From a virus, in the IMG/VR virus record IMGVR_UViG_3300045988_135167: DNA of 64,000 nucleotides. One strand, given 5' to 3'. Shown in pieces: positions 241 through 47,500 of this stretch (within the stretch, counting starts at the first letter, position 1; every line of letters starts with the position of its first letter). The position numbers and the translations under genes are program-made. The notes beneath the pieces are model-generated. The model was not told the DNA's origin. It ran no database searches and saw only the letters and a program-made list of their open reading frames with translations.

Positions 241-322
241 TCTTAGCTTCGCCGCGGAATTGTTCCATGGTGATTCCATATCGTTCACAGAACTCCTTTT
301 GTTGTTCTTCCAATTTGTTCAT
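2..322 (-). CDS. Partial CDS whose 3' end runs off the window start. It encodes N-terminal MNKLEEQQKEFCERYGITMEQFRGEAKIPG followed by 20-aa tandem peptide repeats (VGGSLDL-x6-IPQGFNPT). Function unknown.
   Basis: The ATG at 322-320 is preceded by the ATAGAAAGA upstream motif. The minus frame stays open to position 2. The plus-strand ORF 3..455 is the reverse-frame shadow of the repeats. Confidence 0.5.
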   Translation of the reverse strand, partial: MNKLEEQQKEFCERYGITMEQFRGEAKIPGSLDLRNAKAIPQGFNPTVGGSLDLRNAKAIPQGFNPTVGGSLDLESVTSIPEGFNPTVGGWLDLRNAKAIPQGFNPT

Positions 323-567
323 GGTTTTTTCTTTCTATGTGGTAGGATTCATTTGTCAAATAAAAATTATAAAGAAGCTATTTTTCCATATCCCTGGTCT
401 TGTAACGAATAAAGAAGAGATGCTTCGGATTCTTCCCAAGCTACCAGAACACTAGGTGCATTACTAGTTCCTCCGCTCTTTCCGTCCGGATAACAAAACT
501 TAATTCGCCCTTCCACAAAAATAAATATTTTGCTTTATTGAGAACCCATTGATGAAACCAACGAGTA

Positions 568-855
568 TCAGAACGCATAAATATAAGAGCAAGACCCCCC
601 AATATGTTCACTCATACGTTTTAAGAAAGGCTCTATTTCATTATCATACGGAGGATTCAACCAGACACGTCCTTTCCAGGGTAAAATAAGTCCATTATCC
701 TCAACCGTATAATTGACACGGGCGCAATCCCATGGACGAATAGTAGCGGCACATGGGTCTGTATCAAAGTCCCCTAATAAATCAAGAACATTTCTTGGGG
801 TGAGCCAAACGTTTGTACTGCTCTCCGTTTTAATAGTATTAAAAGTTTTAGCCAT
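568..855 (-). CDS. Dam-like DNA N6-adenine methyltransferase, unusually short and possibly truncated.
   Basis: Contains LDLLGDFDTDPCA and VWLNPPYDN (the NPPY catalytic motif of phage Dam-type methyltransferases). The ORF stops about 20 aa after NPPY. Confidence 0.45.
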   Translation of the reverse strand: MAKTFNTIKTESSTNVWLTPRNVLDLLGDFDTDPCAATIRPWDCARVNYTVEDNGLILPWKGRVWLNPPYDNEIEPFLKRMSEHIGGSCSYIYAF

Positions 856-895
856 GGTAGTTATCCTTTCATTTCAAGGATTCCATATATTTTAT

Positions 896-1120
896 TTAGT
901 TACATTGTTTTATCAATCCCCGCTTTATCCAGGCATCACGGATCAGGGCATCATAGGTATTCACCAGTTCGGTTTCCCAACAACATACCCTGGCCTCCCT
1001 CCGGAAATGGCGCATGTTTTGTTTGGCCACTTCCGGACGGGAAGCATGGTCAATGCGGAACCGCTTGAGTTCTCCGAGTGCCTGACCATACTTCCGGTAT
1101 GCCTTTGATTTTGGGGTCAT
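896..1120 (-). CDS. Hypothetical protein, 74 aa.
   Basis: ORF on the same strand as the operon. No recognisable motifs. Confidence 0.3.
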   Translation of the reverse strand: MTPKSKAYRKYGQALGELKRFRIDHASRPEVAKQNMRHFRREARVCCWETELVNTYDALIRDAWIKRGLIKQCN

Positions 1121-1238
1121 GTTTCTTCTTTATCTTTCCGGATTCGGATGTCAACAAAAAAGGAACCGTCCCGGAGGACGGTTCCTGAACATCATGCAGA
1201 TTGCTTATTTACAACCTTTGCCTTTTCCTTTACCTTTC

Positions 1239-1427
1239 TTAGCCATTGTCTTGTTCTGGTGTTATTTCCTTCAGCCAATGCAAGGCTTCTTCAACCTTGG
1301 TGATGGCCAGGGAAACTTGTCTGGAAGGTTTCAACTCCTGCAACGCATCGTAGAACTTGCTCCCTTGGAGAAAAGCTTCCTGATACTTTTGAGCCGGAGT
1401 TTGAACTTCAATAGGTCCTTTGCTCAT
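1239..1427 (-). CDS. Hypothetical protein, 62 aa.
   Basis: Small ORF abutting the next gene's start. Confidence 0.25.
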   Translation of the reverse strand: MSKGPIEVQTPAQKYQEAFLQGSKFYDALQELKPSRQVSLAITKVEEALHWLKEITPEQDNG

Positions 1428-1909
1428 TATGCTATTTGCTTGATAATGACTCCTGCTACGTAATCATCAACACTCCAGCCTTCACTTGCATTTTCAATCC
1501 TGAAGAAATCTGTAGGCCGCCCCGTTGTGTGATTGACAAACAAGGAGCATCGAAGAAATGCTTCACCGATCGCCAAGTTCGTGTAGCACGTATCGTTGTC
1601 ACCATCATAAATGAAGTAGCTCTGCATCACGCCATTCTGGGAGTTAACAATAGGCTGATTGGCTTGATACAAAGTAGAAAGAATCAGGTCCCACGTACCC
1701 ATTTTCCCTTGATTGTAAGCTCTGACTTGAAGAGCATTCAAAGGATTGAGCGGTGGCAACTGAATTTCATAAACTCCGGAGGGAGCTTCTGCCGGGACTT
1801 GAACGATATTGGAGGTGGTAGCCGAAGCGGCTTCTACATTTTGGTATTGAAAGTACATAGCATTATTTAGGGGGGGGGTGTTTATTGTATATAACTGAAT
1901 AAGACTCAT
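1427..1909 (-). CDS. Tail-fibre-associated or receptor-binding-like protein, paralog A. N-terminus MSLIQLYTINTPPLNNAMY.
   Basis: Shares the N-terminus and a PAEAPSGVYEIQ block with the adjacent gene. A C9 tract encodes TPPL at codons 11-14. Confidence 0.5.
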   Translation of the reverse strand: MSLIQLYTINTPPLNNAMYFQYQNVEAASATTSNIVQVPAEAPSGVYEIQLPPLNPLNALQVRAYNQGKMGTWDLILSTLYQANQPIVNSQNGVMQSYFIYDGDNDTCYTNLAIGEAFLRCSLFVNHTTGRPTDFFRIENASEGWSVDDYVAGVIIKQIA

Positions 1910-1910
1910 A

Positions 1911-2411
1911 TTATTGGGTTACTTGACGAATGATGTAGGAACCGAGAATCGTGTCCGGATTTGACGGTGCGTCGTTCACCTGGGTAAGCCTACAGGCATA
2001 GGTATCAGAACCGGAAACATGCTTGGCATAACCTCGGAACCCAACGTCGCCGCCTGTAATAACACCATCATTCAGAGAACAATACTGAACAAGTTCACCA
2101 GGTTCTTCTAGTCCAAACTCAAAGCCAACTCCTTGCGGAAGTGCAATGGGAGCGAACCACGGAGAATATTCCTGCTTGTACTTAATATTACCATAGGCTC
2201 CTGATTCCAGAACGCCTGGCCAAAAAGCTCGACCAGCACCATCAGAATAATTGAGGTTAATGGAAGCCTGGACTTCATACCAGCCGGAAGGAGCATCCGC
2301 AGGAATGATTACTTTGTATCCACCGGATTGGAACTTGTAATCGTCTCTTTTGTAGTACATAGCGTTATTTAGGGGGGGGGTGTTTACTTGAACTAAGCTT
2401 ATGAGGCTCAT
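1911..2411 (-). CDS. Tail-fibre-associated or receptor-binding-like protein, paralog B. N-terminus MSLISLVQVNTPPLNNAMY.
   Basis: Tandem paralog of 1427..1909 (PADAPSGWYEVQ block). A C9 tract sits at codons 11-14. Confidence 0.5.
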   Translation of the reverse strand: MSLISLVQVNTPPLNNAMYYKRDDYKFQSGGYKVIIPADAPSGWYEVQASINLNYSDGAGRAFWPGVLESGAYGNIKYKQEYSPWFAPIALPQGVGFEFGLEEPGELVQYCSLNDGVITGGDVGFRGYAKHVSGSDTYACRLTQVNDAPSNPDTILGSYIIRQVTQ

Positions 2412-2767
2412 TTGGTTAAAGAGTTGAAAAGTTTGATTGCGGAAGCGTCCGTCACGTACATGTCCGGGAAGGTCTTCAAGGCACCAGTTTCATCGTGCTG
2501 GGCCTCAATCACCAACCGGAGTGCGGGGGCGGCCGGATCGGATTCCGGGTCAATAGCAGAATAAACCCAGACCTGCGTGGCAGACCAGGGTTCCCCCTTG
2601 GCCTGGATGGTGGCTACCACGGCGGCAAAAGCTTTCTTCTGCGTGGCCGTGAGCGATTCGATTTCAACTTCGTCGGGCTTGGTCCAGCCGTCCGGCTTTT
2701 CGCCGAACGCCCGGATCGTGCCTTTCTCGAAGTTGCCTGTCTCTTGGAATATGACTCTTAAGAACAT
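2408..2767 (-). CDS. Hypothetical virion-associated protein, 119 aa.
   Basis: ORF in the structural operon. Confidence 0.4.
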   Translation of the reverse strand: MFLRVIFQETGNFEKGTIRAFGEKPDGWTKPDEVEIESLTATQKKAFAAVVATIQAKGEPWSATQVWVYSAIDPESDPAAPALRLVIEAQHDETGALKTFPDMYVTDASAIKLFNSLTK

Positions 2768-2779
2768 AAATGATTGAGG

Positions 2780-3265
2780 TTAGAATATTGCGGAGAGGAA
2801 GTAGGCATCGCCTATCACGTCGTAGTCGTTGAACCCGACCCCGGTGATGATGTTGGTGGGAGTAGCGGAGGCCGCGCAAAGAGCTGTAATCTCTACACTG
2901 AATCCCGGTTCGGCGGTAACTTCCATATTGTTTCCATTGATGGTCGGTTCTTTGTAGGTAACAGTCCCGTCTCCATTGTCAATGATAATCTGAATGGATT
3001 GGACATTATTCAGCGGGATCGTCAGCTTGGCTCCGGCGTTATAACTGGCGCGTCGGCCATACGCTTTGATCTTCATGTTGGAAGATTTCGGGAGGTTGGT
3101 GATGGCGAAGCTGGGAGTCGCGGCGGCATAAGCCCAGGAGCGGGCTTCAAAGTATTCTCTTTCCATTTCGTTGGTTATATCTGTAGCATTTAAGGAGTGC
3201 CCCCCCCAATAAATGGGAGGGGGACGATCAGGCGGGCACATCTGCCGTGACAATTCCCATGTCAC
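2780..3265 (-). CDS. Hypothetical structural protein. The start is uncertain and may be the internal ATG near 3172.
   Basis: ORF with a G8 tract near its 5' end (W-G-G-H codons). Confidence 0.4.
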   Translation of the reverse strand: MTWELSRQMCPPDRPPPIYWGGHSLNATDITNEMEREYFEARSWAYAAATPSFAITNLPKSSNMKIKAYGRRASYNAGAKLTIPLNNVQSIQIIIDNGDGTVTYKEPTINGNNMEVTAEPGFSVEITALCAASATPTNIITGVGFNDYDVIGDAYFLSAIF

Positions 3266-5465
3266 CGATGGCCCACATTCTTGGTGTAGTGTCTGTAATA
3301 AGGTAAATAGTGGTTGGGTCTTTCGTGGCCAGAGCCGTGTAGGCCGCCTTGGTAGTGGTTACTATCTTGGCGTAGCGTGCGTCTCCCATGGCTACGTTGA
3401 CTCCCATGTTGTCAGTCAACGTGGTTCCTTCGGCAGGGGCTGGAAACTCAATAGGTAGATTCAATCCGACTTTCCCGTTTGCAGGGCCTTCAAGCCAGAA
3501 ATCAGCTCCTGAGGAATACATGTTGATTGAAGTACCAAACTGGATTCCGGTACCATCTGCAATATTGAGTAAACCATTGGAATTGATGGCACCTGTAACG
3601 GTGAGGGTTTGCCCCATCGTAACGCCCGCATTAAAGGCCGCCGCACCCGTAAAGGTAGTTATTCCAAACTTCCAATCCCCGCTAACTTCTACCGTAGTAG
3701 GAGTGGAAGCATTGTATCGAATACTGTTGGGTCCGAACTGAAAGACTTCTGCCTGACAAGTTCCTGAAACTGAAACTGATTCCATAACAGGAAGGACCAA
3801 ACTACTATCTGCGGTTGGAAGAGAAACTTCAACGCGCTTTGCCGCATTGTTGTAGTTCAGCCTAAAAAAGACTGTGGAAGTGGAATCAATGAAACTAAAA
3901 CCAGAGTTACTGGGATCACCATAGTAACCTTCAATGCTTCCAGACAGTACGCCAACACCATCCATTAAAACAATGGGCTTATTACTTTCAATCCCATCGC
4001 CAAAGGAAGCTTTTCCAGCCACGGAAAGAGTCTGACCCATAGTGACACCTTGAGTGAAAGTCGCAGGTCCTTGAACTTCAAATTTCTTTCGGAACCAGAC
4101 ATTCCCTGTAGGGTCGAAAGTTAACCACACAGTATTGTTTCTCTGAACAAGCTGGTAATAGCCATTGTTGGCTGTATAGGTCCACTTACAGCCATATGCA
4201 GACAGAGTTGGATGGTTCTGCTCCATAAGAGTTTCCATTGCAGAACTCCCTTCCGTAATCCCAAAGGATATGCCTTTCTCTGCTTTAATCATTGTAGAGA
4301 AAGTAGTGGCATCCTGAAACACAGTCGGCTCCTGAAAGGTAGTAGAAACCGCCACATCCAGGTGTGCTCCGGTCCCTCCTTCAATTACCGACATCCCGGC
4401 ACCCGTGCCATGGAACTTAACGGCATCGGCACCAACGCCAAAAGTCAACGGAGCTTCATCAGCCATGGTAACGCCGTCGGTAAAAGTTTTAACCCCGGCA
4501 ACATTCTGGTTTCCAACATTCTTTACCGTAGGAGCAATCTGGCCATCCACGTATAGTTTGTTCGTAAGGTCACTAGGGGCTGAAGGGCTTCCCGTTTTCA
4601 TAATTCCCCCAGTAAAGGTCTTGTTACCAGAAATCGTTTGCTCCGTATCCAGAGTAACAAAATTGGCTCCTATACCGGAAACCGCATTGTCCACATACGA
4701 TTTGTTCGCCGCCTGCCCGGCCTGGGTAGGAGTGGGAACAGTGATGTTGGTAAAGCTCCACGCCCCAGTAATCGTGGCATCAGAAGAGGGCGTAAGTGAA
4801 TCTCCTGAGCCTGCGCTAAAAACCACGGGGGAGACCGTGATATTGAACTTGACGTTGGAACGTCCACCGAGATGTAGGATAGGCTTGGCCCCTGTCATCA
4901 CAAACAAATGGGAACCCACTGTGGTAACTCCGCGGAGAATGACCTGGGTGGCCTTGGTTCCCGTCAATCCCACGATGACGGCTGAGAAGGTTTCATCGGT
5001 GACAATGCCGGGTGTCTCCGGGTAGTCCTTGTCCTGCACCGGGAGAACCGAAAGCACGTACATCTTGCCCGCTTCCAGATTCAGGGAACTCAAGTCATAA
5101 TAGCCTGGAGCCACGGACGTTCCTGCCACAAACGGATTGATGGGGTCCGCAACTTCCATTTGGAACTCCTGCTCCACCAGAGCCATAGTCGCATGTTCCG
5201 TTACAGGCTCTTTGACCACGCGGAAATAACCGTTGGACAAAATAGGAAGAATCAGACCTGTAACCGTCCCATTGATATGGAACTGAGTGTCTTGAATGTT
5301 GCTCCAGTCTTCATCCGTTGGAGCGGTTGCCGTCATCTGGAACACCGCTCCCTGGGTCGTGGATTGGAGAATCCACGCTTCGGAGTTCATCTCTCCGGGA
5401 ATCTGGTAGGTCGTTCCCGCGGTAATGGGATCGCCCGAATTATATTGTACAATGTCTAAAGCCAT
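3228..5465 (-). CDS. Tail fibre protein, about 745 aa.
   Basis: Large Gly/Thr/Ser-rich beta-type protein with repeated KSYVDNAVSG and NKLYVDGQIA fibre-like motifs. The true start is MALDIVQYN at 5465. The listed MFHVEH start is an artefact of the palindrome. Confidence 0.6.
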   Translation of the reverse strand: MALDIVQYNSGDPITAGTTYQIPGEMNSEAWILQSTTQGAVFQMTATAPTDEDWSNIQDTQFHINGTVTGLILPILSNGYFRVVKEPVTEHATMALVEQEFQMEVADPINPFVAGTSVAPGYYDLSSLNLEAGKMYVLSVLPVQDKDYPETPGIVTDETFSAVIVGLTGTKATQVILRGVTTVGSHLFVMTGAKPILHLGGRSNVKFNITVSPVVFSAGSGDSLTPSSDATITGAWSFTNITVPTPTQAGQAANKSYVDNAVSGIGANFVTLDTEQTISGNKTFTGGIMKTGSPSAPSDLTNKLYVDGQIAPTVKNVGNQNVAGVKTFTDGVTMADEAPLTFGVGADAVKFHGTGAGMSVIEGGTGAHLDVAVSTTFQEPTVFQDATTFSTMIKAEKGISFGITEGSSAMETLMEQNHPTLSAYGCKWTYTANNGYYQLVQRNNTVWLTFDPTGNVWFRKKFEVQGPATFTQGVTMGQTLSVAGKASFGDGIESNKPIVLMDGVGVLSGSIEGYYGDPSNSGFSFIDSTSTVFFRLNYNNAAKRVEVSLPTADSSLVLPVMESVSVSGTCQAEVFQFGPNSIRYNASTPTTVEVSGDWKFGITTFTGAAAFNAGVTMGQTLTVTGAINSNGLLNIADGTGIQFGTSINMYSSGADFWLEGPANGKVGLNLPIEFPAPAEGTTLTDNMGVNVAMGDARYAKIVTTTKAAYTALATKDPTTIYLITDTTPRMWAIGDMGIVTADVPA

Positions 5466-5480
5466 AAGAAAAAGGAAGTT

Positions 5481-5510
5481 GGGGAAATGTTCCACGTGGA
5501 ACATTTCCCC
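5481..5510. promoter_or_regulatory. 30-bp perfect palindrome GGGGAAATGTTCCACGTGGAACATTTCCCC, located 8 nt after the upstream stop codon and 15 nt before the tail-fibre ATG.
   Basis: Direct reading. The core TGTTCCACGTGGAACA is shared with three other sites. The minus-strand transcript then has a U-rich run (cuuuuucuu). Confidence 0.8.
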
Positions 5511-5518
5511 GGTTAAGG

Positions 5519-6484
5519 TTAAGCCAGCGGTCCCAGGTAGGAGAACACCAACGTTCCGCTGGGGTTGCTCCCGGTGGAAGCCTTGGCAATCGTCACCATG
5601 GTAGTGGCCGCGGCCGTCGGGGCACCGATGGAGAAGATCAGGCGGCCGACGAACTGGTTGCCCGTGAGAACCTTCCCGGCAAGAACCAGCGGAACCAGGC
5701 CGCTGGCGGCCGAGGTGGCACCCAGCACTTCGGAAGTGATCACCGTAGCGGTGGCTCCAACCGTCAGCTTGGCATCCCAGGTGGTGGCTCCAGTCGCAAC
5801 CGGAACGGACACGTCCACCGCATAGGCTCCGGCGGGCATTCCCGCGGGAAGCTGGAAGTCAGTGGAAGCTCCGGACACGGCACCCTGGACGATCCTGGTG
5901 GCACAGGGCAGAACCTGGGCCTGGACGACCGTAATGACCGCGGGAGACACGCCATCCAGGAGAACCTGTAGGTTGGCGTTCACCGCTGTCACGAAAACAG
6001 CGTCCCATCCGGGAAGAAGGGGCGTTGCTTCAGCAACCACGTTATTCAGGGAATCATCCATGAACCGGAGAAGCACGGTGGCCATCGGGTCGGAACAGGT
6101 GATCTTGTAAACGCTACCGGGAGTCAGAGCGTTGGGAACATTGTACCACAAGTCCGGCTGTGCAGGAGAAGGAGAAGGAAGGTTCCCAATAGCGGGAGCA
6201 TCCTTCTGAATCATGCTCAGCGTGACCTTGGCTTCAGACAAGCCAATCACGGTGAAGTATGCGGAAGTCTGGCCTGCATCCGTGGTGAAAGCCACTTCGC
6301 GGTTATAGAGCCTTCCGGATGCCTGGACCGTGGTCCCGGCTTCTTCCTTGGTGATCAGGACTTCAACAGGCCTGTCCGTATTGACTTTGAACACGTACCG
6401 CTTGGTGGCAACAAGCTCTGTAAGCTGGTACTGGGTGCCCGGTACGATGGCCACTTTGTCGGCGGGAATTGGAATAGTAGGCAT
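5519..6484 (-). CDS. Structural protein, 321 aa, Ala/Thr/Val-rich.
   Basis: ORF in the structural operon. Confidence 0.45.
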   Translation of the reverse strand: MPTIPIPADKVAIVPGTQYQLTELVATKRYVFKVNTDRPVEVLITKEEAGTTVQASGRLYNREVAFTTDAGQTSAYFTVIGLSEAKVTLSMIQKDAPAIGNLPSPSPAQPDLWYNVPNALTPGSVYKITCSDPMATVLLRFMDDSLNNVVAEATPLLPGWDAVFVTAVNANLQVLLDGVSPAVITVVQAQVLPCATRIVQGAVSGASTDFQLPAGMPAGAYAVDVSVPVATGATTWDAKLTVGATATVITSEVLGATSAASGLVPLVLAGKVLTGNQFVGRLIFSIGAPTAAATTMVTIAKASTGSNPSGTLVFSYLGPLA

Positions 6485-20452: not shown

Positions 20453-21661
20453 TTATTTTTCCCTCAAAAGACGAACCGAAGTTTTCCGGGCCGTCACGAT
20501 CCCGGAAGTCTCCAGGTCATTGATCAGGGCTTGCTTGATGGCATCCCTTTCCTTTTTGTTCGCTTCAGGAGCCATCTTGTCCAGCAGGACCACCAGGGCC
20601 TTTTTGAAAGAGACGCTGTTGGTGCATGCCATCAGCTCTTCCTGCGTCAGCTCTTCCCGCAGGTAAGCGGTCAGGGCTTCCTTGTTCACAGTCAGAAGCT
20701 CGCCGCCATTGTCGAACTTCCAGCCGGGAACCGGAATCCCCATGGCATTGAGGCTCTTGGCCGTTTCCTTCAACTGGTTTTGAGCCTCGGAAGCCACCTT
20801 GTAAAAGGATAACAACTTGCCTACCAGCACATTGTTCTGCACGGCATCCAAAATGTTGCTTATGTCGGTTCCCTTCAGGTCTTCTTCCTTCAGCACTTCC
20901 GCGGAGAAGGAAATGGCCAGCTCCGTCACCCGGCGGCAGGATGCACATTTGGCACAATACGGGCACACATCCGGGGAGGACTGGTAGGTAAACGGATTTT
21001 CCCGGTCGCGGTTCCTCCGGGAAATCACCGCCTTGTAGCCATCGCGGGCCTGGCGGTAATCCCTGGCCGCAAAATTGACATGATTTTCCCGGAGCTTCTT
21101 TTTAGACGAGCGGACCATCCGGGCCACCTTCAGGCTGTCGGAAAGTGTGGGCTGGATCACGGCCAGATAACACTCCTGGCACTGGCGGTTCTCAGCGAAC
21201 TCGAACACGCCGTAAATCATCAGCTGGGAATTGTCCTTGGGGTGGGTCACGGGGAGAAGACCCATCTTGTAGTCGGCAATACAGGACTTGTCGCCGCACC
21301 GGATCAGCACGTCGGCCGTCCCGCTTTGCTTTTCCTTCAGGCCCTTGAACGTCACCCCGCGGAACTTGTGCTCCCGGATGATGTTCAACTCCCCGCGCCC
21401 CACGCCCCAGAGGGAGCAGAGTTCATCCAGCAGGGATTCCAGGTCCGTATTGGCCCGGTTGTACAGGGAGGATTCATGAACGGACAGCAGGGGTTCGGGG
21501 TCCTGCTTCTCCAGGGCATAGTGGATTCGGGAACCGACGGCGGCCGGGGAGAACTCGTCCTCTTCTTCGTCTTCCCGCTCACGGTCTTCATAGCCGGGAC
21601 AGGTAGCGATCATCATCACCTTGGAAGGTGAATACTTGGTATGACTTACAGGGGTACTCAT
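20453..21661 (-). CDS. PD-(D/E)XK nuclease of the Cas4/RecB type with a C-terminal Cys cluster, 402 aa.
   Basis: IADYKMG (D-x-K motif), QLMIYGV (QxxxY), and a C-terminal CPYCAKCASC iron-sulfur-type cysteine cluster. Confidence 0.55.
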   Translation of the reverse strand: MSTPVSHTKYSPSKVMMIATCPGYEDREREDEEEDEFSPAAVGSRIHYALEKQDPEPLLSVHESSLYNRANTDLESLLDELCSLWGVGRGELNIIREHKFRGVTFKGLKEKQSGTADVLIRCGDKSCIADYKMGLLPVTHPKDNSQLMIYGVFEFAENRQCQECYLAVIQPTLSDSLKVARMVRSSKKKLRENHVNFAARDYRQARDGYKAVISRRNRDRENPFTYQSSPDVCPYCAKCASCRRVTELAISFSAEVLKEEDLKGTDISNILDAVQNNVLVGKLLSFYKVASEAQNQLKETAKSLNAMGIPVPGWKFDNGGELLTVNKEALTAYLREELTQEELMACTNSVSFKKALVVLLDKMAPEANKKERDAIKQALINDLETSGIVTARKTSVRLLREK

Positions 21662-24168
21662 TTTTCTATCAGTGTTTCCAGGTTTTCTTTTTTCTCTTCA
21701 ATGACTGCGGCGATCTTTTCCTCAATGGTGTTGGCCGCAACCAAAATGAACTGCCGCGTGTCGCTCTTGGCTCCGGCGCGGTCAATGCGTCCCAATGCCT
21801 GGACATTATCAATCAGGCTGTAGGAGAGGCTTAAAAGGGAGGCACGGGGACGTTGCCCATTGATGTCATGCAGGGAGAGTCCGGCTCCCCCGGCCTGAAT
21901 CTGAATGAAAGCAATATGGGCTTCGTCCCGCTGGAACTTGTCAATGGCCGCCTGGCGGCTCTTTTTGGACTGCCTTCCATCAATCCGGACGGAGGGAACC
22001 TTCGGGAACATTTCTTCCAGCGCATTGATGCTGTCCAGGAAAGTGAGGAACACGACCACGGAACAACCTTCATCCAGAAGGTTTTGCAGGAACTCGGCAA
22101 TCGTCGGGATTTTGTGAAGCTCCACTTCCTGCCGGGCGCGGAGCAATTCCACCACAGCCGGAGGCCCGGCATAGTCCCGGCCTTCCTCAATGGCTTTCAT
22201 CATGGCTTCCTCGCTCTTGATCAGGTCGGCATCCAATGTATTCTCCATCTTCTCCAGCCACTTCTGCATGCTGTTGATCCGGGAGACGGTCTCCTTGTCG
22301 TAGTCCACCAGCACGGTCTGGATGAAGGAGGTGGTGAAGTAGGGAGCCATTTCCGAGCGGTCCACCTTGGTCAGAATCCCGGCTTCCTTGAGACGGGAGT
22401 TGATGCGCTCCATGTGGGAGATGGTGACTGGAGTGCGGACAAACTCCAGGCCGCCCCAGAAAGCGTGGGTGCATCCATGCTGAAGCATCCAGGCCGTCTG
22501 GGAGATGTAGTTGGTGAACATGCCGAAGGCATAGGCGAAGTAGCCCATGTCCAGCGGATTGATGAAGGGTGTAGCCGAGAGAAGGATCGTTGGTATCTTC
22601 ATGCGGGCGGCCGAAACAAAGGCCAGCCCTTGCAAAGAGAACCGCCCCGCCCGGAGGGCCTGGGCCTCGTCTGAGATAAGCACGGCATCATCCGGGAGGT
22701 TCCAGCGGCCGAGGTTGACGCACCGCTTGTCCCGGCGAACCGGAGGCTTGTACCACCGGGTGTTTCCACGGACCAGCTTGGCATAAGTAAGCACATCATA
22801 ATACTCCACCTTCTGCTGGTCCAGGGCGCGCTCCCAGGAAGAGACCACAGCCTTGGGACAGACCACCACCGGGCGTTTTCCCATGCGCTTCACCGTCTCT
22901 ACAGCCATCAAGGTATTATGGACAATGGTAAAATCACCAAGGAGAAAACGATGGTCCACGTCGTTTACAAACCCGTAATAATCTCCGACCCCTATTGCCT
23001 CTACTTTAAACCCGGTTCTTAAAACATTCTTCTTTTGTTTTCTAATTGAACATTTTCTTCTCGGTACTCGAACAGGTATGCAACTTATATTTCCAGATAT
23101 AACAATTATATAATATAAATCTTCCTTATTAGTATTGGTACAAACCTTTTTTCTAAGCTTGGAATAAGAAGCAAAACCTAATGATCTGGCTACAAATAAT
23201 ATGTCTTCACAAAATCCTTTATATTTTGTGGAAATCTCATAACATCCATTTGTTAAATACCCATCAGTATCAATGATACCTGCAAGAACATTTAATCGGG
23301 TTTCATGACTTCCACATTTATATGGGTGCTTTATCCGTCGTTCCTTCCCATTAAAAATATTTCTATAAATAATCTGTCGTGGAAGTTCTTGGTTCTTGCT
23401 TATACTGGTAAAACTTAAAGGGGTAACACGGTTTACCGCTTTTATTTCTTTTGCCCTCCATCCGATACTTTCAGCGTACCCTTTACAATATTCCAATACC
23501 TCATTATCAACATTGGTTATTTGAGAACACGGGTAGAGCTTTCCATTTACTGTTACAGGTGAAGAGCCATCACCCAAATAAACTCCTACAAAATAAGGGT
23601 CAAGCTCCGGTTTCTCTATCTCCGGGAAATCTACTCCGGTCCTTACCAGCTTGAATCGGTGTTTAAAAGTTTTGGATGATGAAAGATATTCTTTAAGAGA
23701 TATATCAATCAATTCCCCTGCCCAATATTTTCTACCTCCCAATGAAATTTTTACAGGTGTTGTTCCGGAAATTATACCTGTTATAATATGTTCATCGTTA
23801 ACAATATGGGGATCACCTTTAAAGGGAACGATACGATACATCGGGGCTTGGCCACGGGCAAGACTCAAAACTTGACGAGGACAAGAGTCCGGACCCATTA
23901 TTTTATCTCCGACACTTACTTGTTCAATAGGTTTAATTGTACCGTTGAACATCAGAACAGGAGTTCCTTTTCCGAAGCACTTGCCGACCCCGGTGTTGCT
24001 GGAGTTCAGCACAATCCCGTTGCGGCGCATGGACTCCAGCATTTCACCGATGCACCGCTCCTGCGGAGGGAACGGGTTCAGGGGTTCCGGAACATACGCC
24101 TTCTGCGTCTCCAGGGTTTTCCGGGAGGCATTGCCCGTATTGGTCAGTCGGATTCGTCGGGTCGGCAT
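21658..24168 (-). CDS. SNF2/DEAD-like helicase, 836 aa, interrupted by a 355-aa LAGLIDADG intein. The extein is about 481 aa.
   Basis: Walker A GVGK|T is split by the intein. DEAQALR motif II and C-terminal helicase motifs are present. Intein features: Cys1 (CFGKG), two LAGLIDADG blocks (VGVYLGDGSS and LAGIIDTDGYL), and a terminal HN followed by Thr. Confidence 0.7.
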   Translation of the reverse strand: MPTRRIRLTNTGNASRKTLETQKAYVPEPLNPFPPQERCIGEMLESMRRNGIVLNSSNTGVGKCFGKGTPVLMFNGTIKPIEQVSVGDKIMGPDSCPRQVLSLARGQAPMYRIVPFKGDPHIVNDEHIITGIISGTTPVKISLGGRKYWAGELIDISLKEYLSSSKTFKHRFKLVRTGVDFPEIEKPELDPYFVGVYLGDGSSPVTVNGKLYPCSQITNVDNEVLEYCKGYAESIGWRAKEIKAVNRVTPLSFTSISKNQELPRQIIYRNIFNGKERRIKHPYKCGSHETRLNVLAGIIDTDGYLTNGCYEISTKYKGFCEDILFVARSLGFASYSKLRKKVCTNTNKEDLYYIIVISGNISCIPVRVPRRKCSIRKQKKNVLRTGFKVEAIGVGDYYGFVNDVDHRFLLGDFTIVHNTLMAVETVKRMGKRPVVVCPKAVVSSWERALDQQKVEYYDVLTYAKLVRGNTRWYKPPVRRDKRCVNLGRWNLPDDAVLISDEAQALRAGRFSLQGLAFVSAARMKIPTILLSATPFINPLDMGYFAYAFGMFTNYISQTAWMLQHGCTHAFWGGLEFVRTPVTISHMERINSRLKEAGILTKVDRSEMAPYFTTSFIQTVLVDYDKETVSRINSMQKWLEKMENTLDADLIKSEEAMMKAIEEGRDYAGPPAVVELLRARQEVELHKIPTIAEFLQNLLDEGCSVVVFLTFLDSINALEEMFPKVPSVRIDGRQSKKSRQAAIDKFQRDEAHIAFIQIQAGGAGLSLHDINGQRPRASLLSLSYSLIDNVQALGRIDRAGAKSDTRQFILVAANTIEEKIAAVIEEKKENLETLIEK
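22915..23979 (-). other. Intein (Hint plus LAGLIDADG homing endonuclease) inserted in the helicase P-loop.
   Basis: Begins at Cys (TGC at 23977-23979) and ends at His-Asn (22915-22920) followed by Thr. Splicing restores NTGVGKTLMAVE. The central part (about 22980-23800) is markedly AT-rich relative to the flanks. Confidence 0.65.
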
Positions 24169-26007: not shown

Positions 26008-26035
26008 CCGGAATGTTCCACGTGGAACATTCCGG
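26008..26035. promoter_or_regulatory. 28-bp perfect palindrome CCGGAATGTTCCACGTGGAACATTCCGG, located 8 nt after the upstream stop codon and 18 nt before the DNA polymerase ATG.
   Basis: Direct reading. Same core and same 8-nt spacing (GGTTnnnn) as the site at 5481-5510. Confidence 0.8.
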
Positions 26036-34480: not shown

Positions 34481-34506
34481 CGAATTGTTCCACGTGGAAC
34501 AATTCG
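34481..34506. promoter_or_regulatory. 26-bp perfect palindrome CGAATTGTTCCACGTGGAACAATTCG, followed by the hairpin GGCGAGGTTTTAATCTCGCC (34519-34538).
   Basis: Direct reading. Confidence 0.8.
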
Positions 34507-36079: not shown

Positions 36080-36109
36080 CCGGAAAATGTTCCACGTGGA
36101 ACAATCCGG
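36080..36109. promoter_or_regulatory. Palindrome with the perfect core TGTTCCACGTGGAACA (36088-36103) and imperfect outer arms, followed by the hairpin GGCAGGATTAAAATCCTGCC (36131-36150).
   Basis: Direct reading. Confidence 0.75.
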
Positions 36110-44528: not shown

Positions 44529-47500
44529 GTGCGTCAGATTAACGGCGCGCACCATCCTTTTATTATGGCTATTGATTATTCCAAGTTAAGACCTTCCGAC
44601 TTTCGACCGGAAAGAGATTCAGAGTTCCGGGCTGAAACCAATTTCCTTCAGCGGCAGGAGGACCGATCCACCCGGCTCCAGAAGGAAGAGGGGCAAGCCC
44701 AGGTCGAAGCCGAAGAACCGCTGGCCAAGTTTGAACAGGAGCTGGCCAAGACGATTGAACGGAATCGGAAGAATGCCGAGAGTGCGGAAGACCGCCAGCT
44801 CCGGTTGACCCGCCAGCAACAGGCCGACATTGACAAGGAAACTTCCAAGTTCGTGGCCACCACCACACGGGAGGACCGGGCCACGACCCAGGCAAACCAG
44901 AAAGCTGAGAGCAGGTTGGCCGCGCTGGGAAAAACCGGGAGAAGCGGTCTGGTATTCAATACGATTGAAGAGGCCGAACAGTATAACAGCCGTCCGGATA
45001 CTGACTTTGTTGACTATGTGTCAGGAGGCGCGGAAGCTTTCCGCAACAAGGCTTCTTCCCTGGGCCTGTCCGTGGTTGATCCGGCTTCCCTTCCCCAGCC
45101 TGTCAAGACCCGGCCAGCCCAGCAACGGGGAGATGAATTGACCGGGACCATGCTCAAGCGCAGTCCCTATGGTATAGCCGTCGGCAGTGATGGAAGCATT
45201 GTGGTCTCCGACAAGTTCATGCAGTTCGCCCTGAACCCGGACCTGGACCCGGCGACCCTGGCCAAGAATATTTCCCGAACATTTGATGCGTTTAAAAAAG
45301 AAGCCAATCCCACGCAGAACCCAAACAGCGAGATCAATTCACGCAACCTTGCACCCGAAGACATTGAACAACAAATCAGAACCCTCCGGGCCAGTGATGT
45401 CCGGACCCGTGATTCCGTCCGGAAAATCCTGCAAGAGCGGCAGGACGCGCTATCAAAGTACAAAGCAAGAGAAGAGAAGATTCAGCAAATCCAGGGTGGA
45501 AGCCCCGGCCAGCAAACTCAACGGCAGGAAGGAACCCCGCAAGTGGGGGAGCCGCTTGGAGGTGGCGAATCTTCTGAACTCACGTTCGTCCAGAACGTCA
45601 TCAGCCAGATCGACCGCCTCCGCACCGAGCCGGAACTTGCCGCTGAAGCCTTCGGGGAACAGCTCGCCGGACAGACAGACGCACAATCCGTAGCCCAGCG
45701 CGGAGCGGTGGCCGATGAATTGCAGTCGGCAATCGACCAGCAGGAGCGTTACAAACGCACGGAGGAACTGGCCGCCCGCATGCGGCTGATTGAAGAGAAC
45801 AAGGACAAGCTCGCCGAATCGCTGGTGCGCCAATCGCCCAACCTGGAATTCAGAACCATCCGCAAGGAGCTGGATGATGACAGCTTGATGGCCAATGAAG
45901 CGTTGGAGCAATGGGTCGTGAACCGTGGATTCCCTTTGACTCCGCAGGAAGCCGACATTATTAACAGCCGCTCCAATGAACTCTCCGCAAACGCGGCAAT
46001 CGCCGATGACTATGAGAAGGCCAGGGACCAGGCGGTGAGGGAATATCTCAAGTCCCAGGATGCGTCGCTGGATGACCGGGGCATTGATACCATGGGCCTT
46101 CAGCACTATGCCATGCGGCACATGGGCCAGCTTGACCAGGACAATTCCCCGGAGCGCGTGGCCAGGGAAGCCCTGCGCCATTGGGCCTCGGAGGCCCGGC
46201 AGATTTTTGGCGGCCAGGCGTTTGAGTCCGACCAGATGGTCAACCCCCTGGATGCGTTGCAGTGGGTCCACCGTCCGGAGACCGGGAAGTATATCCTTCA
46301 ATTCATTGATCCCACCACCAAGGAGGGGTATGGCAACGGCTATGAAGTGGACTTCATGGGGGTGCATGACAACGCCCGCCGCCTCGGCGTTACACCGGAA
46401 CAATACCTCGACGCTTTGGCCCTCCCCCTGCGCCAGGGAAACCTGGGTGACAGCCGGGACACCAACACACTCTTCGCTTATGATCCCATTAACCAGGTTC
46501 TTGTGGAAAATGCAACGATTGGGCAGGGCAATTCCGCAAGCTATTTTGATGATGCCCTGCTTGAGCGCAGTATTGAACAGGCCCGGAAAGCTGGCGCGCC
46601 GCAAGAGCAAATTGATGCGACCGTCAAAGAGGTCCAGCGCGTCCGGGATGAAGCGAGCCGTATCGTGGTCTCGGACCTCCTTCAGGAGTCGGATGCCATG
46701 GCCCTGGTCAGCGACACACCGCTTGAGGGGATCATCCCCCAGTCGGTCAAGGACAGCATCCAGGCATCCACGGCTGTCAATTTCCGGCAGTTCTATGACA
46801 TTGAAAAGAAAGCGGGCAAGGATGATCAGGAGATCATCCGGGACTACATGTCCGATGTGAAGGACAAGAAAATATCCATGGGGGTCAACATGGCCCTGGC
46901 CCGCTGGGAGAATCAGTGGAACCGCATCAAGCTGGCTTCCGAACAGTGGACCAAATCCGCGCTCTCCCTGCTCCCCGGAGTCAACCTCAACGAGGGACAG
47001 GGCCAGCGGTATGCTTCCGAATGGGAAGCCTTGAACAAGCGTGACCAGCTGATCACTTCTGCCGTGGGACGCGCCGGGTCCGTGGCAGAGTGGACGGGAG
47101 AATTTGGATCACTGGCTCTCCAGTTGGGAGAGTCTGCAATCTCAGGGGGATTGGGTTCCCTGGCCGGACGCGGGGCGGCCCGGCTTCTGGCCACCCGCGC
47201 CGCAACGATTGCAGGAACCAGCGTGGCTCTCCGAAGTGCTGAAGTGGTGGGAGCCGTAGCCCGGCCCGGAATCACCAGCCGCATCGGGCAGGGAGTCACC
47301 CGGCTCCTGACAACGGAGTCTGCAACCCTGGCCCGGCTCGGAGCCGGGACGGCCAACTCCATGTACATTGCCATGCAGAGCATGCCCCAGACCTACGGGG
47401 ATGTCTTCACCCACCGCTACCAGCAAGCCAGGGAGATGATCAACAACGATCCCCTCACCCGGAACATGGCCGAAGGAATGAAGGACGAGCTGGCCCAGAA

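Follow-up and report, generated by a model that had tools for sequence, protein, structure and literature searches.

Length-variable homopolymer tracts behind the tail fibre of an uncultured human-gut phage: candidate frame switches in the leaders of predicted fibre-knob genes

Homopolymer switches in known systems and the present locus

Phase variation through slippage at homopolymers is textbook knowledge for bacterial surface genes and, to our knowledge, has been shown in phages only for those of Campylobacter and, lately, for the T-even phages. Here we describe a candidate for such variation in IMG/VR virus record IMGVR_UViG_3300045988_135167, analyzed as one stretch of 64,000 nucleotides (nt) (hereafter the window), in which long G/C homopolymer runs lie behind the tail-fibre gene and two of them fall in short leaders at the start of two tandem paralogous genes, paralogs A and B, whose cores are predicted to be distal (knob) domains of a tail fibre. 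We hold with moderate confidence that these tracts are hypermutable loci of the contingency type that switch the frame of the 17-amino-acid (aa) leader of the knobs, likely as bet-hedging in host recognition. The window belongs to a previously undescribed, recurrent lineage of human-gut phages in which four tracts of this kind lie close together behind the tail fibre, and natural alleles for every on-off combination of A and B are already present in public metagenomes; if these states alter adsorption or evasion of defence, the lineage would offer a natural system for hedging of gut phages against hosts with varying surfaces.

The repeats of Haemophilus lic1 follow alternative ATGs, and those of Neisseria opa lie in the leader peptide. 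The locus in the window resembles both in that the repeat occupies the first ~15 codons and its frame would decide translation of the body, and an alternative ATG keeps the gene open in one related locus (L002; L numbers designate related loci throughout). It differs from them in being carried by a phage, in using a homopolymer instead of a repeat of 4-5 nt, and in having an internal restart that may turn the switch into a choice between a long and a short form. Invertible fibre segments (the G segment of Mu and the C segment of P1) and diversity-generating retroelements (Mtd of BPP-1) also switch at random between alternative distal parts of the fibre that are encoded beside the fibre gene, but the switch proposed here acts by reading frame and not by inversion or mutagenic retrohoming.

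The closest known system is that of the Campylobacter Fletchervirus phages, which carry hypermutable polyG tracts in receptor-binding genes according to the passages of PMC10877375 and PMC12823448 that cite Sorensen 2021. As those passages describe it, G/C homopolymers likewise occur in genes of the host-recognition module, and their length shifts the frame and creates phage subpopulations; the tracts are placed there inside the body of the receptor-binding gene, whereas the present ones lie in a short, coupled leader. The present arrangement further differs in that either alternative frame meets a stop and a restart AUG follows 4-8 nt on, in that it targets separate, duplicated knob genes, and in that it belongs to an uncultured gut phage that has no detectable relative in INPHARED and is known from sequence alone. 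Next come the contingency loci of T2 and T4, where short homopolymers mutate reversibly by polymerase slippage as a form of bet-hedging, and where repeats of at least 6 are under-represented in tail-fibre genes (Gomez, Barrick and Waters, bioRxiv 10.1101/2025.10.21.683753). A tract in a Dam-family methyltransferase gene of the window parallels agt, the defence-evasion example of that study, whereas the concentration of long runs (8-13) beside the fibre sets the present phage apart.

Tract lengths, reading frame and the leaders

The three long runs of the window are as follows, at exactly the positions given in the original prediction for this DNA.

1870-1878, plus strand (C9 on the coding strand): G9 run in the paralog B leader, codons 11-14
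2372-2380, plus strand (C9 on the coding strand): G9 run in the paralog A leader, codons 11-14
3200-3207, plus strand (G8 on the coding strand): C8 run, the 3' arm of a hairpin behind the fibre gene

They are the only G/C runs of at least 7 in the 64-kb window. Shorter G/C runs decay geometrically in number (351 of length 4, 79 of 5, 3 of 6 and 0 of 7), and extrapolation of this decay gives 0.2 runs of at least 8 against the 3 observed (P ~1e-3). All three lie inside 1.34 kb, for which random placement gives P ~1.3e-3. The two paralogs that bear the G9 runs are organized as listed here.

1911..2411, minus strand: whole open reading frame (ORF) of paralog A, leader plus core
2361..2411, minus strand: paralog A leader, 17 codons, MSLISLVQVNTPPLNNA
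2365..2371, minus strand: TAAATAA after the paralog A tract, with a TAA in each alternative frame; it resembles the motif usually found upstream of starts in this phage
1911..2360, minus strand: paralog A core, 149 aa, MYYKRDDY..., predicted jelly-roll knob domain
1427..1909, minus strand: whole ORF of paralog B, leader plus core
1859..1909, minus strand: paralog B leader, 17 codons, MSLIQLYTINTPPLNNA, its ATG 1 nt past the paralog A stop
1863..1869, minus strand: TAAATAA after the paralog B tract
1427..1858, minus strand: paralog B core, 143 aa, MYFQYQNV..., predicted jelly-roll knob of the same family as A

Both leaders encode the identical TPPL at codons 11-14 that had been reported for them, as ACC CCC CCC CTA in each, and a 34-nt block, AAACA-C9-TAAATAAYGCTATGTACT, is identical between the paralogs at 33 of its 34 positions, with the remainder of the genes diverged. 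The earlier statement that the paralogs diverge after about 45 aa is true in degree only: the BLASTP alignment covers just the first 50 aa (52% identity), but the family alignment shows homology over the whole length, at 27-29% identity and with a common C-terminal IIxQI motif.

For comparison, 26 related human-gut metagenome loci were gathered by protein search, by look-ups of contigs carrying exact proteins, and from IMG/VR and JGI/ENA contigs, with one duplicate fetch removed (L007 = L001), and tract lengths were read from the assembled sequences. Flanks are up to ~99% identical among these loci while the runs differ in length. The tract of the leader found in paralogs A and B (leader type 1) occurs at 29 sites, in the window and 20 relatives, and reads C5 once, C6 once, C7 six times, C8 ten times, C9 ten times and C10 once; a second C10, with which contig L026 opens and whose leader is truncated, stands outside this count. 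Pure runs were found at 26 of the 29 sites, and the other three are interrupted (CTC7, C7TT and GCAC9). Leaders before an A-type core have C6, C7TT, C8, C9 or C10 in the relatives, the pure C7 alleles of the MSLISLVQV leader (L016 and L017) sit before a B'-type core, and the paralog B leader has C5, C7, C8, C9, CTC7 or GCAC9. In the closest relatives, L018 and L019, ~34 mismatches occur in 2.9 kb and 3 of 4-5 indels fall in homopolymer tracts; the remaining ones are a G3/G4 run at plus-strand position 510, in the methylase gene, and an alignment-edge gap at plus-strand position 1439, at a gene end. The proposed comparison of related genomes thus gave ranges of C5-C10 for the leader tracts, G7-G13 for the tract behind the fibre and G6-G13 for that of the methylase gene across the window and the 26 loci; differences in length among near-identical relatives, which shift the leader in or out of frame with the core, bear out the original description of the tracts as slipped-strand sites. 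As a separate observation, three independent contigs break off exactly at a tract (in G12 at the end of L006, in C10 at the start of L026 and in G6 at the start of L027), a hint of either mixed tract lengths within samples or loss of coverage there.

The consequences of length for frame follow from TAAATAA, which is unchanged at every leader-1 site. With C9 or C6, the leader reads in frame into Met18 and the core (MSLI..NTPPLNNAMY...); C8 and C5 bring the first TAA of TAAATAA into frame, for a leader product ending ..NTPP*, and C7 and C10 the second, for one ending ..NTPPK*. The stop of an off allele lies 8 or 4 nt upstream of the core AUG, and the core ORF is intact in all off genomes. Among the six genomes with both an A-type and a B-type knob, window included, all four A/B combinations were found: on/on in the window, on/off in L005, L010 and L015, off/on in L004, and off/off in L003. 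L027 has three leader-bearing paralogs, all of them off. The on/off switching originally proposed is therefore supported in that A and B vary independently and every state is seen, but "off" is not clean, as the core AUG follows 4-8 nt on. At the level of sequence the run is present, polymorphic and maintained, and it changes the frame in translations of both leader tracts and of the Dam-family gene, as in phase variation.

Maintenance of the run is best seen against the rest of the genome. The remaining genes, 14,622 codons in all, encode 27 Pro-Pro dipeptides, for which CCCCCC is used 0 times versus 4.1 expected, although CCC is the commonest Pro codon of this phage; the run is kept in the leaders and avoided in ordinary genes, which suggests that it is selected for and is not a by-product of codon bias. 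The refuting observation named in the original prediction, replacement of the tract by non-repetitive synonymous codons in relatives, is the opposite of what was found, since the tract stays pure at most sites and it is the neighbouring codons that vary synonymously. In the MSLIS../MSLIQ.. leaders, all three variable sites are synonymous third positions (CTC/CTT, AGT/AGC and CAG/CAA), and M-S-L-I is common to leaders A and B despite three synonymous differences; the one B-leader variant with a changed residue, MSLIH.. in L024-L027, has CAC/CAT at codon 5 (Q to H). The leader ATG either overlaps the stop codon of the gene upstream or adjoins it, so the leader appears translationally coupled to that gene.

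Two further leader types, MNLNEW..HP.LF..SPPP.. (type 2) and M.S.DLLLTLK..G...ITP(T)PPP.. (type 3), carry the same C run 5-11 codons 5' of the core Met, and both are recognizable in representatives of <50% identity (P0022, P0025, P0029, P0021 and P0050). All six loci with leader type 2 (five distinct sequences) have it in frame. In two of these, L002 and L008, the internal ATG is replaced by AGG and the leader is in frame; in L002 a 14-nt tract is offset by the alternative ATG in another frame, so that the gene stays open. Judged by these patterns of substitution and conservation, the leader is coding sequence. Gene callers picked the core ATG even with the leader in frame (L004 and L021). Annotators should be aware that this lineage yields knob calls of both 143-149 aa and 160-166 aa, contigs broken at tracts, and a methylase resembling a pseudogene.

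These observations can be joined into a mechanism. Replication slippage at the runs, at a presumed rate and with presumed reversibility, would give heritable variants of +/-1 nt. A tract of 3n (6 or 9) would yield a jelly-roll knob of ~145 aa with a 17-aa N-terminal extension, and at other lengths (5, 7, 8 or 10) the leader would end at a TAA in TAAATAA, 8 or 4 nt before the core AUG. In this off state, the knob might be made without the extension, through re-initiation or independent initiation, or might be made poorly. A and B would switch separately, and the phage population would therefore be a mixture of knob states. The benefit would most likely be bet-hedging in host recognition.

Knob cores and competing explanations

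The identity of the cores bears directly on what the tracts might control. A search of 5.8 billion proteins found the knob family in 15 clusters only, and Pfam and PHROGs gave no match for the paralogs or for two other cassette proteins of 119 and 128 aa. A profile search of 1.84 billion representatives, however, returned full-length domain matches at the C-terminus of larger proteins. Two of these, P0041 (438 aa) and P0046 (498 aa), have the core domain directly C-terminal to Phage_tail_C, the motif that also ends the fibre of the window phage: P0041 reads ...TIYFLTDRNMWAIGGKE-MGHNYFTIIA-MYLTT..., and the fibre of the window ends ...TIYLITDTTPRMWAIGDMGIVTADVPA*. Because the domain is fused behind Phage_tail_C elsewhere, the paralog cores are best read as distal (knob) domains of a tail fibre encoded as separate genes. 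The AlphaFold 2 model of the paralog A core (mean predicted local distance difference test (pLDDT) score 79.5) has an all-beta jelly-roll fold, whose fold matches are weak, with heads of the C1q/TNF/BclA type among the best ones. The label "receptor-binding-type" that the genes had been given is backed by this homology, with the core at the C-terminal end of Phage_tail_C proteins in distant relatives, and by the homology and the predicted fold together the paralogs are candidate receptor-binding parts of the virion.

The cassette varies in content, as seen when window positions 1427-3227 are compared with L001, L004, L005, L010, L016-L019, L023 and L027. The number of knob genes per genome ranges from 0 (L001) to 4 (L027). 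In L016-L019 and L023, an A-type leader is joined to a B'-type core, a combination attributed to recombination inside the conserved leader block; recombination is accordingly likely to be frequent at this leader/tract block. At the first cassette position, the 128-aa gene alternates with a C-type knob. At 9363-9400 of L009, a C10 tract and leader are followed by ATG TAC TTT TAA, a knob remnant of 3 codons, and then by a truncated B-type knob of 108 aa; this degenerate cassette shows silenced copies in decay.

Several observations weigh against a frame switch with consequences for the phage. The variation described above is between assembled genomes and not within the reads of a population. Only 11 of the 29 leader-1 sites (38%) are in frame versus 33% expected if frame were irrelevant, a fraction compatible with either a balanced switch or absence of selection on frame. 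All stand-alone forms aligned (A4) share the core Met, and AGG takes its place only in the leader-2 genes of L002 and L008; this Met is preceded by a TAAAT/A-rich motif as at bona fide starts, and C-type knobs exist without any leader. For these three reasons the core may be expressed equally in both tract states, in which case off would mean loss of the 17-aa extension only. L001 is without any knob gene although its fibre is of the same type as that of L005, and the knobs are therefore dispensable. The cassette is also co-directional with an Acb2/Tad1-like gene and the Dam methylase gene, with its own variable G tract, directly after it.

Some of these points are shared by an explanation that we regard as rather unlikely, in which the gene starts at the core ATG (MYY/MYF), the tract and TAAATAA form a 5' untranslated or initiation region and a joint for cassette recombination, and length drifts without phenotype. 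Such neutral instability fits the invariant core Met, although the AGG exceptions themselves keep the leader in frame, and it agrees with TAAAT and an A-rich stretch upstream of many confirmed starts, with the use of the core ATG by gene callers, with the near-random share of in-frame sites, with the leaderless C-type knobs and with the joining of A leaders to B' cores. It does not account for leader codons that change synonymously and keep MSLI, for the coupling of the leader ATG to the upstream stop, or for leaders 2 and 3 conserved as peptides, the former always in frame and twice without an internal ATG; moreover, an unselected long homopolymer should decay, yet the run is largely pure and such runs are avoided elsewhere. 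Homopolymers are also error-prone in sequencing, contigs break at these tracts, and two-colour polyG artefacts could have lengthened the very long G12-G13 alleles, so that miscalls in sequencing or assembly might fake the length differences. This is very improbable: the same alleles come from independent samples and assemblers (L005/L006, L016/L017, L018/L019 and L011/L012), which counts against random sequencing error; the differences between relatives are as large as 7 nt; there are interrupted alleles (CTC7, C7TT, GCAC9 and GGAGGGGG) and a compensating pair, C9TTT in L011 versus C10TT in L013, that differs by substitution without an indel; and other homopolymers in the same alignments are constant, bar one G3/G4 site.

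Two further explanations accept the tracts as real and differ on what they do. Programmed recoding, by ribosomal frameshift or transcriptional slippage, would give a fixed ratio of two products from one DNA sequence; C CCC CCC matches the slippery pattern X XXY YYZ, and an AUG that comes after stops in the two other frames is compatible with recoding designs. Recoding sites, however, have a fixed length, whereas the DNA tract here takes lengths of 5 to 10; structure prediction gave no stimulatory element downstream (fold energies of the leader regions are -2 to -3 kcal/mol, z +0.3 to +0.7 versus shuffled sequences), and efficient bacterial slippage sites are A/T-rich. The ribosomal slippage offered as an alternative in the original prediction is superfluous because the length differences lie in the DNA, and recoding has very little probability in our judgement. 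It is also improbable, though somewhat less so, that the cassette proteins are counter-defence or exclusion factors whose tracts hedge against host immunity, as with T2 agt. Besides the co-directional defence-related genes and the dispensability of the knobs, the position of the only T-tailed terminator-like hairpin, after the Acb2-like gene, would suit this explanation; against it stand the fusion of the core behind Phage_tail_C in other phages and the jelly roll of C1q/TNF type (weak fold matches), typical of fibre heads, and no PADLOC-type or anti-defence homology turned up for the knobs in searches that did not include a scan of the PADLOC library.

Within the frame-switching explanation, a more specific and tentative version, possible but doubtful, is that the C run is a dedicated joint between shaft and knob and the leader a detachable docking anchor, so that knob A and/or B would dock only at 3n. 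In L002 and L008, the fibre ORF itself continues across the tract, C6 and C9 both being in frame, and reaches its stop shortly beyond; with a single added C, the fibre would be fused to the knob that follows: ..TPTPPQIEEIMYY (...TPTPPQIEEI-MYY). The fusion frame is open in P0021, mimicking the fused architecture of P0041 and P0046, and the window leader SLVQVNTPPL resembles the fibre tail EIVTAETPTPL of L002/L008. If such a joint exists, one phage genotype could give rise to virions with differing tip combinations.

An invertible segment was considered and rejected: only two weak inverted pairs of 17-18 nt were found, unrelated to gene borders, and none flanks the cassette. No invertase or reverse transcriptase appeared in domain scans of selected ORFs, and no template/variable repeat pair of a diversity-generating retroelement was found in a repeat scan of 250-6000, with no dedicated search beyond that and the selected-ORF domain scans.

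Further tracts, neighbouring genes and the phage lineage

The remaining features around the paralogs are listed below.

3228..5465, minus strand: tail fibre, with Pfam Phage_tail_C at aa 713-737 and stop TGA at 3230..3228
3200..3223, minus strand: GC hairpin, with CCCCCTCCC at 3223..3215, loop ATTTATT at 3214..3208 and G8 at 3207..3200
2780..3166, minus strand: 128-aa gene (MEREYFEA...), downstream of the hairpin
2408..2767, minus strand: 119-aa conserved gene, its TGA stop overlapping the paralog A leader ATG (ATGA)
1239..1427, minus strand: Acb2/Tad1-like gene, 62 aa, Pfam Acb2_Tad1_hairpin (E 8e-7)
1186..1161, minus strand: terminator-like hairpin after the Acb2-like gene, the only one with a T tail
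595..600, minus strand: tract, G6 on the coding strand, in the Dam-family N6-adenine methyltransferase gene 441..855, which is out of frame in the window

The fibre likely starts with MALDIVQY at 5465 (the mechanical ORF reaches 5504), and aligned with those of relatives it shows a mosaic in which both termini are conserved and the central part is variable. The AlphaFold 2 model of the 119-aa protein (pLDDT 88) gave uninformative fold matches. The Acb2_Tad1_hairpin family comprises anti-CBASS/anti-Thoeris sponge proteins, and in nearly all relatives the gene immediately follows the final knob gene.

The tract behind the fibre appears to be of a different kind from those in the leaders. The hairpin CCCCCTCCC-ATTTATT-GGGGGGGG begins 4 nt past the fibre stop, with the G8 as its 3' arm. 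Its predicted RNA fold has a 9-bp G-C stem, with a minimum free energy of -21.2 kcal/mol for a 66-nt segment; its z-score against dinucleotide shuffles is weak because such shuffles keep the G and C runs. Among the window and relatives, the tract reads G7, G8, G10, G13 or G4AG13, and the divergent relative L014 keeps the C-rich arm, with another loop and G8. A role of the hairpin as intrinsic terminator was rejected: a T tail is missing, and the terminator scan did not pick the hairpin up. The original prediction placed this run near the 5' end of ORF 2780..3265, but that mechanical ORF starts at a GTG 38 nt inside the fibre, and stored gene calls of six relatives (L003, L016-L019 and L024) start at ATG 3166, which gives the 128-aa product and leaves the G8 in a 61-nt spacer between the fibre and this gene. 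Alternative starts at ATG 3241 and GTG 3265 would put the G8 in frame in the window; the ATG 3241 frame is open through the tract in the window and L019 and not in L016-L018, L023 and L024, and the ATG is absent in L003. The tract is thus most likely a hairpin arm in the spacer and probably non-coding, and it is unstable in length. The 128-aa gene was also considered as a fourth knob paralog and rejected, with an hhalign probability of 0.06% against the knob family.

The fourth tract, that of the Dam-family gene, reads G6, G7, G8, G9, G12 or G13 in relatives, or the interrupted GGAGGGGG (L015). An intact Dam of 163 aa, which matches Pfam Dam, is found only with G8 (L001, L019, L020 and L022) or with the interrupted form, and the gene looks like a phase-variable phage methylase. 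The window has, in addition, a private 1-nt loss near plus-strand position 510, where it reads GGG versus GGGG in all relatives; resetting its tract to G8 would therefore give only ~146 aa with the last ~22 residues altered, not the 163-aa form.

Phages of this lineage, of ~60-67 kb, are uncultured and were found solely in human-gut metagenome assemblies. The 50,697 phage records of INPHARED gave no match, whether searched by blastn with window positions 1200-5600 or by tblastn with the major capsid protein, and all matches of the DNA polymerase to deposited phage records were of <30% identity. A search of the capsid protein against GTDB genomes, for a host or prophage, found no prophage relative, and an exact-pattern scan of IMG/VR for C6TAAATAAYGCTATGTA gave no match. 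The window genome encodes a family A DNA polymerase, a VapE/BT4734-like primase and an NAD-dependent ligase. Its genes are without Shine-Dalgarno sequences and instead have TTAAAT or TTTAAA and then an A-rich stretch 5' of their starts; this lack and the BT4734-like primase domain are weak hints that the host may belong to Bacteroidota.

Elsewhere in the genome, the helicase gene (21658-24168, minus strand) carries an intein with Hint and LAGLIDADG homing endonuclease domains, and one ORF of 3323 aa (44529-54500, plus strand) is of a size like that of the virion RNA polymerases of N4-like/crAss-like phages. Positions 1-240 consist of 60-nt tandem repeats that run past the window edge; their counterpart in L001 (9212-10339) is an ORF of 375 aa with ~9 copies of a 20-aa unit (...PTVGGSLDL.....IP.GFN). 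Finally, an 18-bp perfect palindrome, ATGTTCCACGTGGAACAT, occurs four times with at most 2 mismatches (5487-5504, 26013-26030, 34485-34502 and 36087-36104), against 0 expected by chance. At least 3 of the 4 copies lie at the edges of long ORFs, where the palindrome gives rise to spurious "MFHVEH" N-termini in ORF calls, and the copy 5' of the fibre lies inside a hairpin with a 13-bp stem followed by a T-rich tail; the palindrome may be a terminator or an operator.

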